From IMG/VR virus record IMGVR_UViG_3300042546_000155: a stretch of 64,000 nucleotides of DNA, one strand, 5' to 3'. The position numbers and the translations under genes were made by a program. The stretch comes from a virus. Within the stretch, counting starts at the first letter, position 1. Each line of letters opens with the position of its first letter. Positions 4,648 through 54,426 of this stretch are shown here, one piece after another. The notes beneath the pieces were generated by a model, which saw only the letters and a program-made list of their open reading frames with translations, was not told where the DNA came from and did not search any database.

Positions 4648-6950
4648 TATGACAAACCAGCTCCTGATACGGCAAATGTATTAGCACGGACACAGATAAG
4701 AGTTGCGAGTCCATAATTGCTCAACAATCTATTTCCTGTATCGTTGGTACCGGATAGAAGTAGCGTAACATTGTTGTTCTGTGTAATCGTCAATGATGTT
4801 GCGGTATTGTTGAAGATGCTTACTGTCTGACCGGTGGCAAATACAGAGTTTACGATAAACACATTAGCACCGGGTGCATCAACAGAAATCAACTTACCGG
4901 TATCAGCCAATGTTAGAATATATGATGCAGGCTGACTATTAACTGGCAAATCTCTTAGCGGACCGTTAACATCAGATACATAACCATTTACATATAGACT
5001 GCCTTCAAGACTTGCATTTGTATTAGGTAGAGAATTGTTTGCTGTATTAAATGCAGCAGTAATGGTAGTACCGAATGTGTTAACTGTTACCGCTGCGTAG
5101 TTAGCAATGTTGAATGATGTATTAGAAATGGTTGAAATTACATTCAACTGTCCATATGAAGCGATTGTAGTTGCGGCAACATTATATGCATACTCATATG
5201 TCGAGTTAGCAAAGTTAGATCCGTTATTAGCTAGAATGTATGCGGCATTGGCTCTATCGAATGCAGGACCAGGATAACCGAACTCACTAGCAATTGTATT
5301 AGCACGGTTATATGCACTGTTAGCAACATCATAAGATGAGTTGGCATGAAGGAATGCAGCATTAGTATTAGCAATGACACCATAAACAAGAGCATTACTT
5401 GTATTAGCTAGATCAAACACAACAGTTGTGGTGGCAGCCACATTGTATGAGAAGCTATTAACAGTGTTTGCAAATGTGAATGATGCAATAGCATTGACTA
5501 GAGCGGAATTTGCTGTATCATTTGCTAGGTTTGCTCTCTCAAATGCTCCGGTGAATGCAGCAAGGGCGATAGTATTGACACTAAGTCCACCAAGGAAGTT
5601 ATTAACATTGGTATTGGCAGCCTGAGCGATTGCTAGAGCGTTTGCTGTATTAGATGCTGTAACTGTAATAGTATTGCTAAATGAGTTGAGTGTATTACCG
5701 AACTCATATGCCAATAGAGAAACAGCACCACCGTCTAGGCTATAGACGAAAGAGTTTGCGGCAGTTGCAGCGATATATGCGGCAGTTGCTAGATCAAATG
5801 TTTGATATCCGAATGTATTGACAGTATTAACTAGATTTGAAACGGCATTAACTCTTTCATCTACCAATGTAATTCTGTCATTACATGTATTGGCTTCATC
5901 AAATGCAGCAATAGCAATTGTTGGGAACTTATATTCTAGAGTGAATGATGAAAGACTATTTGCTAGATCATAAACGGTGTTTAGTGTAGCATAGACATTC
6001 TGAGAATAACCGTTTGAGGTATTAGCAACATTGAATAGCTGGTTGATTCTAAACTCTAGTCCATCGGAACGAGTATTAACAGTATTGGAAGCATTGAAAA
6101 CAATAGCCACACTGTTAGCAACATCGGATACATATGTATTTACCGTATTTGCATAATCAAAGGCAGCATTTGTTCTGTCTGATACTTCGGCAACAGTAGC
6201 GGCTAAGCCTGCGCCAGATGTAAGCGAAAGATTGTTAGCAAATGCGAAAGCGGCTACAGCAACATTAGATGTGTCGTTAGCAAAAGCAAATGCAGCATTC
6301 GCCTGGTCATATACTGTATTGACTCTGGTATCCAGATCACCATTTGTAAGTGAATAAGCATATGCATTAACCGAATTGGCAAATGTATAAACATTAGCAA
6401 CATCGGAATTTGTGGCCGATGTAATGGTGACAAGTGTATTGGCTAGATCATAAGCATATGATAGAGTGGTGCTAACAAGTCCTGTTTGTAATAGGGCACT
6501 GTTGGCAAAGTTATATGCTGTATTTGATTGATCATATGCAGCACTAAGTTTAGAGCCAAATGTATTAGCATAATCAAAAGATGCTTGTGATGTTGCATAA
6601 GCAAGGTTCGATTGATTGTAAGATACAGTAAAGTTGGCAGATAATGTCGATACAGTAGCATTAGATGAGTTGAGTGCGCCTTGAAGCGTAGTAATACTAT
6701 CAAGTGCATTTCCGATAGAAATGAATGCTGTATTAGAAAGATCCGATAATGTATTAGCAGCCAGGGCAGTATTGTTTGCTAATCCATATACAGATGTTAC
6801 AGTGTTTGAGGTATCGTTAGCAAAAGCAAATGCTGATATTACTGTATTTGATGAATCGTTTGCAAGTGCATATGAGCTATTAGCGGTTGTGTAAGCCGCA
6901 TTAGCTGTATCATATGCTGAATTTGCTGTATCGAAAATTGGGTCTGCCAT
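4647..6950 (-). CDS. Coiled-coil fibre protein with A[FY]DxAN heptad repeats and a C-terminal head domain
   Basis: Dozens of A[FY]xxAN repeats; C-terminus YILTLADTGKLISV...GQTVSIFN...ATLICV resembles phage fibre tip domains. Confidence 0.65.
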   Translation of the reverse strand: MADPIFDTANSAYDTANAAYTTANSSYALANDSSNTVISAFAFANDTSNTVTSVYGLANNTALAANTLSDLSNTAFISIGNALDSITTLQGALNSSNATVSTLSANFTVSYNQSNLAYATSQASFDYANTFGSKLSAAYDQSNTAYNFANSALLQTGLVSTTLSYAYDLANTLVTITSATNSDVANVYTFANSVNAYAYSLTNGDLDTRVNTVYDQANAAFAFANDTSNVAVAAFAFANNLSLTSGAGLAATVAEVSDRTNAAFDYANTVNTYVSDVANSVAIVFNASNTVNTRSDGLEFRINQLFNVANTSNGYSQNVYATLNTVYDLANSLSSFTLEYKFPTIAIAAFDEANTCNDRITLVDERVNAVSNLVNTVNTFGYQTFDLATAAYIAATAANSFVYSLDGGAVSLLAYEFGNTLNSFSNTITVTASNTANALAIAQAANTNVNNFLGGLSVNTIALAAFTGAFERANLANDTANSALVNAIASFTFANTVNSFSYNVAATTTVVFDLANTSNALVYGVIANTNAAFLHANSSYDVANSAYNRANTIASEFGYPGPAFDRANAAYILANNGSNFANSTYEYAYNVAATTIASYGQLNVISTISNTSFNIANYAAVTVNTFGTTITAAFNTANNSLPNTNASLEGSLYVNGYVSDVNGPLRDLPVNSQPASYILTLADTGKLISVDAPGANVFIVNSVFATGQTVSIFNNTATSLTITQNNNVTLLLSGTNDTGNRLLSNYGLATLICVRANTFAVSGAGLS

Positions 6951-51814: not shown

Positions 51815-52403
51815 CGACCTTCTCCTTCAGTATGTGTTTGAATTTCTCCTTATCATACTTTAGAAATGGTCTATACTTTTTCACCTTGAGTGAAACCTTA
51901 GGCCAAATCACATCATTGTCATAGTATTTATCAAACTTATCAGCATATCCTGTGAAGTCATTTAGAATTGTCATCGTCTCAATTGAGATTGACTTGCGTA
52001 GAAATAGAATCACAATATCTGGATATCTATCATTACTCACATTGAAGGACACTCTCGGATCATCTTCTTTGAAGACCTTTTGTATGTCATCGGCAAAGAG
52101 ATAAGACAAACTCTGTCTCCGTCTTGTATAGGCAGTATGAACATCATTTGCTTCTTCGCTTGCAAACTCTAATATGTAATGCTTGTCATCTAGAAGATTG
52201 GCAACATAGTGATCACGCAATTCTTCTGCATTGTATTCTTTGGCTAGTTTCTCATAGAACCATTTGTCATTTCGTTTTAGATATGACTCCTTGTTTGCAC
52301 GGAGTTTACCGTTCATTTGAAAGAAGTCATACTTTTGACTGGTGAAATGAGTCCTAAGTGCCAAGAATAGCAAATAGGACCCATAGCCTGTGAAATGTTT
52401 CAT
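51786..52403 (-). CDS. gp59: Helicase loader
   Basis: Y.LFLALRTHF...YDFF..NGK...YLKRND.WFYEKL...ISIET..IL...KYRPFL; synteny 33-59-32. Confidence 0.92.
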   Translation of the reverse strand: MKHFTGYGSYLLFLALRTHFTSQKYDFFQMNGKLRANKESYLKRNDKWFYEKLAKEYNAEELRDHYVANLLDDKHYILEFASEEANDVHTAYTRRRQSLSYLFADDIQKVFKEDDPRVSFNVSNDRYPDIVILFLRKSISIETMTILNDFTGYADKFDKYYDNDVIWPKVSLKVKKYRPFLKYDKEKFKHILKEKVDENTRGKRI

Positions 52404-53236
52404 CGAGTCTGTAGGTAAGGATCAATGTTCATTACTTCATCAACGGTCTGTGCTACGAAACCTTGGGACTGCTGCTGCATTGGAGGAAGACCATATGAGT
52501 CTAACATCTTGGCTGCCATTTCTTCTTTTATCTTATTATAAGAATCCTTGATCATATCAGATGTGAGACCTCTTAGATTTGAATACGGCTCATTAGGTGT
52601 TTCTAACACCCAACCTTCATTGAGGAACTTGTTCTTACGGTATATCTGATTTGGGTGTTCAAGTTGTTTATGGTTCCACTTGAGGACCTTATTCTTGATA
52701 CAGTCAAAGGTCTCACGGTTGATATAGAGTTTATCCTCTAGAGGATCATATGACACCTTGCAATGCTTATAATCAAAGTGTGCTAGTAGTTCCTCACGAG
52801 TCTGATACTTGGTGAGAATATACTGTGCCTGCGTTCTATGATTATTGATCACATCAACAATGTTTGTATTGTGCATATAAGACATCATTTCGGAACGTGA
52901 CCATTCCGTGTCTGCAAAAGGAACATCATCAAAGATTGAATTGATAGGTGTGATAGGATTGTAGGCGGCCGCCATTGCCTTTTTCGCCGCTTCTTCTCTT
53001 TCACTCTGCTTCTTGAAACCTTCTGTCAGGTGGTTATAAACACCAACATCATTATTCAATACAAAGATATCAATGTCCTTGAACTTAATATTCTTTAGGA
53101 CATTTGTAAAGAATCCACCAGCAATCACAACATTATTGCCATACAGACCCGATAAGAGATTTCGTGTTTTGATTAGAGATTTGATTGCTCTTTTGGATTC
53201 TTCAATATCATACTTTTCATTATCACTAAACATCAT
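52400..53236 (-). CDS. Nucleotidyltransferase-fold protein (Pol-beta / PolyA-pol head-like)
   Basis: VVIAGGFF...KDIDIF (hG[GS]...DxD) and later FDY..C motif. Confidence 0.7.
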   Translation of the reverse strand: MMFSDNEKYDIEESKRAIKSLIKTRNLLSGLYGNNVVIAGGFFTNVLKNIKFKDIDIFVLNNDVGVYNHLTEGFKKQSEREEAAKKAMAAAYNPITPINSIFDDVPFADTEWSRSEMMSYMHNTNIVDVINNHRTQAQYILTKYQTREELLAHFDYKHCKVSYDPLEDKLYINRETFDCIKNKVLKWNHKQLEHPNQIYRKNKFLNEGWVLETPNEPYSNLRGLTSDMIKDSYNKIKEEMAAKMLDSYGLPPMQQQSQGFVAQTVDEVMNIDPYLQTR

Positions 53237-53679: not shown

Positions 53680-53832
53680 AAGCGGGCCCGTTCTGTTTCG
53701 AGGTGGAGCCCATACCCAAAGGATTACGCTGCTAGAGCGAAAGCCTCATATGCATTGTTGTCGTTTGCATTTACGATTTGCTTTCGATCTCCTTACGACC
53801 TTACTGAATCCTGTCGAACCTGAATCCGGCCC
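53680..53832 (-). ncRNA. ssrA: Two-piece tmRNA, coding piece (5' acceptor strand, D-loop, tag reading frame)
   Basis: Starts GGGCCGG-AUUCAGGUUCGAC at 53832. After UAAAU, resume codon GCA (53768) reads ANDNNAYEAFALAA-UAA (stop 53724-53726). 3' GGGCUC...AACAGAAC-GGGCCC element. 3' end approximate. Confidence 0.93.
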
Positions 53833-53833
53833 A

Positions 53834-54268
53834 TCATAAAGAAACATGAGGATTGGTTTTCTTCATTACAGATTTCAATCTGCCTCTCCACCATCCTACA
53901 GGATGTTCATTCAAAGAAAACTGACCTTCAGCGTAGCCATCATTGAACCAATATCTTTGAGTTCTAATCTTACGACCATCAGTTCCCGTAGGATACTTTC
54001 TCTCTTTCTTTGAATGGTTTGCCCATCTAAGAGTGTTCGTAAGTTCTGCTCCTTTTTTGGCGCCTTCATTGATTGCGATAAAAGAACATTCATCGGAAGT
54101 TAGTAATCCCAACAAACCTTTCCAAGCAATCAAATCTTGCCAGTGTCCATGTTCCTCATATAGTTTCTTATGCGCTTCGGCATGTTCCTCTATAGTGAGT
54201 TCAACGATATTTTCTGGTTCATCATTCCCACCCATATGTTTAGGAATGATATGGTGCTTATGTTTCAT
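53834..54268 (-). CDS. HNH homing endonuclease-like protein inside the tmRNA intervening segment
   Basis: HKHHIIPKHMGG.D...N.V.LT.EEH..AH (HNH); C-terminal WFNDG...GW.RGR motif of phage HEG DNA-binding modules; AGGAG SD. Confidence 0.88.
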   Translation of the reverse strand: MKHKHHIIPKHMGGNDEPENIVELTIEEHAEAHKKLYEEHGHWQDLIAWKGLLGLLTSDECSFIAINEGAKKGAELTNTLRWANHSKKERKYPTGTDGRKIRTQRYWFNDGYAEGQFSLNEHPVGWWRGRLKSVMKKTNPHVSL

Positions 54269-54274
54269 AATAAT

Positions 54275-54308
54275 CTCCTGTCGATATTACTATTTATAAA
54301 TCGACAAG
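54275..54308 (-). promoter_or_regulatory. Late promoter TATAAATA in the loop of a hairpin covering the HNH RBS
   Basis: CTTGTCGAT(54308-54300)-TTATAAATAGTAAT-ATCGACAGG(54285-54277); the 3' arm overlaps SD AGGAG (54279-54275). Confidence 0.85.
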
Positions 54309-54324
54309 TTTTCACATTTCCTTA

Positions 54325-54392
54325 TGGTGGACCGGGTGGGAACTGCCCCCACGTCCAAGAAGCCTATATTCCGTCTCTCAACGATCTAAGCA
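54325..54392 (-). ncRNA. ssrA: Two-piece tmRNA, acceptor piece (T-arm, 3' acceptor strand, CCA)
   Basis: GGAC-GUGGG-GGCAGUU-CCCAC-CCGGUCC-A-CCA ends at 54325. CCGGUCC pairs with GGGCCGG (G3-U70, discriminator A). UGCUUAGAUC pairs with GAUCGAAAGCA of the coding piece. 5' end approximate. Confidence 0.93.
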
Positions 54393-54395
54393 TAT

Positions 54396-54426
54396 TATTT
54401 ATAACATACGGTGAGTTTTTTGTCAA
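54396..54426 (-). promoter_or_regulatory. tmRNA promoter: sigma70 TTGACA-N17-TATAAA overlapping T4 late TATAAATA
   Basis: -35 at 54426-54421, 17-nt spacer, TATAAATA at 54403-54396. Confidence 0.88.

Follow-up and report, generated by a model that had tools for sequence, protein, structure and literature searches.

A probable free-standing homing endonuclease gene in the intervening segment of a permuted phage tmRNA gene

The permuted ssrA locus and its resident gene

The sequence considered here (the window) is a stretch of 64,000 nucleotides from a virus (IMG/VR record IMGVR_UViG_3300042546_000155) whose genome of 174.5 kb is complete and T4-like, forms one contig that has a terminal repeat, and encodes 25 tRNAs; the tRNA genes are clustered at G000:C1:154601-159192 of the phage's own genome. 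An ssrA gene in two pieces lies on the minus strand, and has T4-like replication and late-transcription genes for neighbours (a helicase loader, a gp33-like regulator, PhoH and an exonuclease); for gp32 the best matches stand at about 50%. Two genes downstream of ssrA, at 52400-53236 on the minus strand, is a 278-aa nucleotidyltransferase-like ORF (PHROG 1614), the homolog of which at the equivalent position in the related locus L274 matches Pfam Gad2. The features of the ssrA locus are collected in Table 1; the coordinates proposed in a first-pass annotation, made by reading the letters without database searches, all agree with the minus-strand sequence.

Table 1. Features of the permuted ssrA locus and of the gene in its intervening segment (IVS), in minus-strand order
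Feature	Position in window	Strand	Basis or remark
ssrA promoter	54396..54426	-	read from sequence
-35 TTGACA	54426-54421	-	17-nt spacer before TATAAATA
TATAAATA of ssrA promoter	54403-54396	-	also fits phage late-promoter motif
tmRNA acceptor piece	54325..54392 (5' end approximate)	-	Rfam RF04321 alignment
T-arm	54352-54336	-	
Acceptor 3' strand CCGGTCC	54335-54329	-	
A73	54328	-	
Encoded CCA	54327-54325	-	
IVS, 492 nt	53833..54324	-	Rfam; 70-110 nt at equivalent site in nuclease-free sisters
IVS-closing stem, 5' arm	54313..54324	-	12/12 pairs with 53848-53837
RBS hairpin	54276..54308	-	fold -11.9 kcal/mol, z -3.3
Internal late promoter TATAAATA	54298-54291	-	in hairpin top
Hairpin 3' arm	54284-54276	-	copies ssrA D-loop motif; overlaps Shine-Dalgarno (54279-54275)
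144-aa HNH endonuclease gene	53834..54268	-	PHROG 655, AlphaFold, fold matches, dN/dS
IVS-closing stem, 3' arm	53837..53848	-	final four HNH codons
tmRNA coding piece	53680..53832 (3' end approximate)	-	sequence and Rfam
G1 / acceptor 5' strand GGGCCGG	53832 / 53832-53826	-	
D-loop motif	53817-53809	-	
Tag reading frame	53724..53768	-	14 codons, ANDN start, ALAA-stop end, alphaproteobacterial type

The permuted, two-piece tmRNA proposed in that annotation is borne out by Rfam, in which tmRNA_permuted (RF04321) matches at 54386-53724 with 62.5 bits (gathering threshold 47), its order of acceptor piece, IVS and coding piece being the order found, and alpha_tmRNA (RF01849) scores 51.4 bits (gathering threshold 50) with the insert in place. 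ARAGORN, the other program that had been suggested, called no tmRNA at the locus. The acceptor stem forms 7/7 pairs, including G3-U70, and A73, the CCA, the T-arm and the D-loop motif are all present. The promoter that had been placed upstream could also be read from the sequence, as TTGACA, a 17-nt spacer and TATAAATA; a sigma-70 scanner made no call there because the -10 hexamer terminates in A.

The 492-nt segment between the CCA and G1 was confirmed, as was the complete 144-aa ORF that it holds. The stop of this ORF ends at 53834, so that a single T (53833) precedes G1, as had been observed. Placement of the stop one base ahead of G1 is rejected as an adaptation of the nuclease, for 151 of 208 nuclease-free IVSs likewise end in TGAT; the one-base gap is not peculiar to the nuclease because a conserved TGAT leader gives the stop to several cargo ORFs. 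In L012 (3001-3477), L014 (3001-3459), L176 and L230, the nuclease frame passes G1 and stops in the tmRNA coding piece, so that RNase P cleavage would sever the ORF of the precursor.

Pairing of the stem that closes the IVS, compared among 16 nuclease-bearing alleles, averages 8.5/9 within an allele versus 5.7 across alleles (permutation p < 1e-4); in empty alleles it is 8.4, a level matching that of the bearing alleles, and in L272 the stem is retained despite a switch between Ser codon families. The closing stem covaries, even by way of the final codons of the HNH gene, and selection is therefore maintaining the fold of the precursor. With G3-U70, the CCA and the tag intact, and with the closing stem covarying, the tmRNA looks functional. 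A group I intron in the tmRNA T-loop is excluded, the T-loop being intact and the insert lying between CCA and G1; Rfam returned no intron match within the window, and the ORF and its control region occupy the IVS, leaving no space for a ribozyme core. An IVS of the 23S rRNA kind with a 23S_rRNA_IVP domain is also excluded, as the RNA is a tmRNA and the protein an HNH protein.

PHROG 655, labelled 'homing endonuclease', is matched by the 144-aa ORF at E 7e-13, and a match to Pfam HNH (E 0.003) falls under the cut-off. Its N-terminal motif is H5 H6 N20 H29 H33, spaced (H5-H6...N20...H29...H33) as in colicin-type HNH active sites; N20, H29 and H33 are invariant among 91 homologs, and H5 and H6 among 13 sequences. 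An AlphaFold model (mean pLDDT 91) has, in addition to the HNH module, one long helix and a C-terminal beta domain of small size; among viral folds it is matched best by HNH and homing endonucleases of phages, T4 MobB and a MobE among them. Sequence and fold searches of the PDB gave generic HNH-motif matches only, with no fold match at E < 0.001; a local overlay on Cas8-HNH reached 0.9 Å over 37 columns, its E not being significant. The dN/dS values against three relatives are 0.15, 0.11 and 0.07, and the HNH protein is therefore being maintained.

Alleles with and without the nuclease

Relatives of the locus were recovered with a 25-nt probe from the coding piece. Alleles with short spacers and no HNH gene at the same site, for which the first-pass annotation had recommended a search, were found in near-identical ssrA genes, and most of the recovered relatives have an IVS of 70-110 nt with flanking genes unchanged. 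Counted over the IMG/VR loci and an independent collection, there are 17 distinct complete HNH-bearing IVS alleles (478-642 nt), in divergent phage tmRNAs, and about 207 nuclease-free alleles with a median IVS of 81 nt, counts in which L279 is taken as a bearer and an apparent 829-nt IVS in L016 is disregarded. Phage tmRNAs that differ greatly from one another harbour members of this HNH family in their IVS, and of the homologs at 56-92% identity that were looked up in the independent collection, 9/9 lie within a permuted ssrA IVS. Similarity of the nuclease is weakly linked to that of the tmRNA (Spearman 0.31), as exemplified by L266 (82% in the protein versus 54% in the coding piece) and L003 (66% in the protein versus 93% in the coding piece).

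Pairs of closely related alleles locate the differences that accompany the insert. Compared with L204, L206 and L215, the window tmRNA differs at positions 4-6 and 67-69 and at 2-4 other bases in ~180 nt; positions 4-6 and 67-69 are partners in the acceptor stem, where they make up three compensatory pairs that directly flank the insert. Its acceptor piece is that of the nuclease-free L204 save for positions 67-69 and one upstream base, and the first 109 nt of its coding piece are those of L206 and L215 save for positions 4-6. In an unrelated lineage, the bearing allele L008 differs from L295 (66-nt IVS) only in the start of the D-loop and in the stem, which is again GGGCCGG. In a further pair, the bearing allele L275 shares its stem with L418 (29-nt IVS) but differs by a 2-nt D-loop insertion. 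L003 and L272 have the mRNA-like domain and lineage of the window but a swapped tRNA-like domain, and their HNH variants are 66% and 74% identical to that of the window; since the three carry different nuclease variants, one tmRNA lineage has acquired the element on three or more occasions. Co-converted flanks are a known mark of homing (PMC2988022), and the acceptor-stem swaps flanking the insert are as co-conversion would leave them.

The changes in bearing alleles hit no single fixed base, affecting the stem in some and D-loop length or TCGAT in others. A purine occupies stem position 6 in 11/16 bearing versus 16/163 free alleles, TCGAT in the D-loop is by itself not enriched (3/17 bearing versus 21/208 free), and a composite score of any deviation (16/17 versus 38/208) was defined post hoc and is not used as support. 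Because the alleles are not independent of one another and chosen patterns were used to sample them, enrichment p-values overstate certainty, and the argument is carried by the paired allele comparisons rather than by p-values. Self-protection probably stems from altered sequence at the acceptor/D-loop junction, and not simply from interruption of the site.

No full-length copy of the nuclease was found in bacterial genomes, where 10 GTDB matches cover only the N-terminal 45-87 residues and have no ssrA beside them, or in the cultured phages of INPHARED, where the matches are again N-terminal only and lie in cyanophages; the sole one checked, in cyanophage S-SRM01, sits between structural genes. 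Around ssrA the family has three positions, one within the IVS and two upstream of the gene, on its own strand or on the opposite one. A single clade of IVS members is rejected (p-AU 0.001) in a 33-row tree that omits homologs without a visible ssrA link and in which domain shuffling could contribute to the rejection; this tree was used in place of an 85-row N-terminal tree that was poorly resolved. The tie between nuclease and ssrA that had been claimed for the IVS has to be refined as regards location, sister nucleases just outside ssrA having that gene as their presumed target and IVS residence corresponding to no single clade. What is constant would appear to be the target gene, ssrA, with the IVS as one refuge that has been entered or left repeatedly.

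In L017 and L019 an old 5' half of ssrA is stranded, ending exactly after G7, and is followed by an antisense nuclease and then by a fresh 5' half of the gene, with a changed D-loop in the case of L019; as read from their sequences, these stranded halves independently support cutting near the D-loop. The antisense sister nuclease of L016, L017 and L019 (~2650-3800 in L016 and L019) lies between the old and the complete new ssrA 5' halves, a layout that has the form of gene-end replacement in an RNA gene. Other sister nucleases, in L013, L026, L027, L030, L034, L042, L044 and L054, adjoin acceptor-piece stumps that end in the T-loop, with an intact ssrA 0.9-2.5 kb from the stump in L026, L034 and L042; stumps of this type are read as the outcome of longer resection.

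Expression control and the predicted target

Of the 57 occurrences of [AC]TAAATA in the genome, 22 precede an ORF start by 8-60 nt, such windows making up ~3% of a strand, and on this distribution we take the motif to be the late-promoter motif of the phage, one well supported in the genome. The hairpin that surrounds the internal copy (Table 1) is predicted to act as a translational lock and as an operator. Late promoter and RBS hairpin are present together in 14/16 bearing alleles, L003 and L007 being without both. A late promoter in a hairpin that covers the RBS has been documented for I-TevI, segB and Aeh1 mobE (PMC2988022).

The 9-mer TCGACAGGA has three copies in the genome, two being the hairpin arm (54284) and the D-loop (53817). 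TCGAC lies no more than 30 nt from the start in 12/17 IVS nuclease genes and in 8/8 sister genes that are divergently upstream of ssrA, the repeat standing upstream of the late promoter in the latter. Among other homologs it is found in 4/47, all four belonging to the divergent clade and each following a stranded ssrA acceptor stump, and among homologs without a visible ssrA link in 0/43. To some degree the D-loop copy varies with its cognate ssrA allele: the match extends to 12 nt in L230, and in L274 the two have a variant in common (permutation p 0.02). The operators that T4 intron nucleases have at their own promoters resemble their homing sites (PMC2988022), and from this likeness, together with the D-loop copy at the promoter, we infer binding of the enzyme to the D-loop region, with cutting close by. 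The target of the HNH protein is accordingly placed, as a prediction by analogy, at the junction of acceptor strand and D-loop.

A proposed explanation and its alternatives

At the level of sequence, the HNH gene agrees on every test with the free-standing homing endonucleases of the T4 Mob type, and we consider it likely that it is such a gene, targeting phage ssrA and resident in a spacer that a permuted tmRNA can dispense with. Precursors of permuted tmRNAs are cut by tRNA-processing enzymes (PMC11915505). The closing stem would loop out the entire HNH gene in the folded precursor, RNase P and 3' trimming would free a normal two-piece tmRNA, with splicing unnecessary, and the nuclease would be translated solely from its own late transcript, repressing its own late promoter by binding the D-loop copy. 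In a mixed infection, a phage ssrA that lacks the nuclease gene would be bound by the nuclease in its D-loop region and nicked or cut near the acceptor 5' strand, at about G4 to the D-loop, and recombinational repair would copy the IVS along with both acceptor strands. As both of these strands flank the IVS, a resistant stem would be handed on with its two strands still matched, and the tmRNA would stay functional.

The IVS could alternatively be a recombination cassette between conserved RNA halves, in which the HNH gene is a passenger with a target elsewhere or none. The IVS cores of sister alleles are unrelated, and cargo other than the nuclease includes a thioredoxin, a tRNA-Arg and, in 12/28 long nuclease-free IVSs versus 1.4% in shuffles, an ORF led by a Shine-Dalgarno sequence (SD) and covering at least 60% of the segment; since such cargo fills the IVS too, IVS swapping happens without a resident nuclease. 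The idea that the IVS is a safe harbour for the nuclease is upheld by the recurrence of HNH residence and has to be widened, the IVS being a general cargo slot rather than an HNH-only niche. Passive carriage is nevertheless unlikely, as it gives no account of why bearing alleles repeatedly have altered acceptor stems or D-loops, why the promoter of the nuclease carries a copy of the D-loop motif, or why sister nucleases outside the IVS truncate and replace ssrA halves.

Rather less probable again is a domesticated weapon, the main target of which would be the ssrA of the host chromosome or of a co-infecting phage, to the advantage of the phage's own tmRNA and with homing as a by-product. Purifying selection on the HNH gene would suit such a role, and no part of ssrA is more conserved than the predicted site (acceptor strand and D-loop), which fits the Rfam bacterial consensus; however, absence of the gene from most close relatives is a better fit to a selfish element than to a needed function, and control by a late promoter is a known homing pattern (PMC2988022). 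That the insertion inactivated ssrA, with the flanking pieces the remains of a decaying pseudogene, is very improbable: although the IVS exceeds the nuclease-free median length about sixfold, the three stem changes are all compensatory, G3-U70, the CCA and the tag are intact, the closing stem covaries among bearing alleles (the Ser codon switch of L272 included), and the layout persists across 17 divergent alleles. Beyond the homing endonuclease reading of this one gene, we lean slightly towards an active class of splicing-free, intron-like elements, which would combine ssrA-specific nucleases, a refuge in tRNA maturation, paired self-immune acceptor strands, autoregulation through D-loop mimicry and breakage-driven turnover of spacer cargo (proteins and tRNAs).

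The arrangement is real and recurrent, and would be a new kind of location for free-standing phage homing endonucleases. Homing endonuclease genes (HEGs) in tmRNA genes are known only within T-loop group I introns, and for permuted IVSs only a tRNA-Ala and a repetitive element have been mentioned (Nawrocki et al. 2025, PMC11915505); in the literature searched, in which one key older survey of tmRNA genes was not covered, a homing endonuclease in the IVS of a permuted tmRNA is not reported. The T-loop introns resemble the present case in that an HEG lies within a tmRNA gene and is removed at the RNA level, but theirs are LAGLIDADG enzymes in self-splicing introns of one-piece genes (PMC11915505). 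Two-piece ssrA genes are already known in aquatic phages, and the T4-like genome of Melnitz likewise has a permuted ssrA upstream of a gp33-like late coactivator (PMC9004378), although in the window phage one small ORF separates the two; the Melnitz paper contains no mention of 'homing' or 'HNH'.

The free-standing Mob HNH enzymes (MobE, target nrdB) and SegB (tRNA region) of T4 (PMC2988022, PMC2790892) are similar in their N-terminal HNH and variable C-terminal domains, in lying outside introns and inteins, in having a late promoter in an RBS-covering hairpin, and in a patchy distribution with co-converted flanks. Unlike them, the present phage HNH gene lies in the processed spacer of an RNA gene, between the acceptor-stem strands, and its final codons double as RNA structure. 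With I-TevI, I-TevII and also I-TevIII it shares a copy of the presumed target that overlaps or adjoins the late promoter of the nuclease (PMC2988022), whereas those genes reside in group I introns and the operator role is here deduced from sequence only. The IVSs of 23S rRNA, such as that of Coxiella (PMC4990558; PMC11270868), are comparable as ORF-bearing inserts excised by a host RNase without ligation to give a fragmented working RNA, but the enzyme is RNase III and not RNase P, and the protein they encode, which is uncharacterised, is no known nuclease, with no homing signature reported. To introns, inteins and intergenic DNA would thereby be added a further option, in which an HEG at its conserved target is rendered harmless in a spacer removed by tRNA processing. 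Gene permutation would make this refuge possible, in that the acceptor strands adjoin the insert and the resistant stem can be co-converted without broken pairs, and a precise candidate target for a small nuclease of 144 aa is defined by the operator mimic, by the allele pairs and by the stranded stumps.

The spacers of phage tmRNAs represent an overlooked cargo site, missed by ARAGORN when the insert is long. The cultured Sinorhizobium phage Phosso (PV764938.1) has an unannotated permuted ssrA (L001:2510-2919), whose 410-nt IVS lacks an SD-led ORF, matches nothing in Rfam significantly and may be an unknown structured RNA. In L363 (213-464, minus strand), an 84-aa thioredoxin (Pfam E 4e-21) occupies the IVS, 268 nt long, of a permuted ssrA from a phage. 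Small ORFs of 23-84 aa, often hydrophobic, fill the IVS in L417, L088, L126, L397, L323, the L083 group, L313 and L336, with the SD right after the CCA and the TGA of the leader often serving as the stop. The IVS of L158 (about 4708-4784) contains a complete tRNA-Arg(TCT), and those of L187 and L399 carry T-arm-like hairpins.
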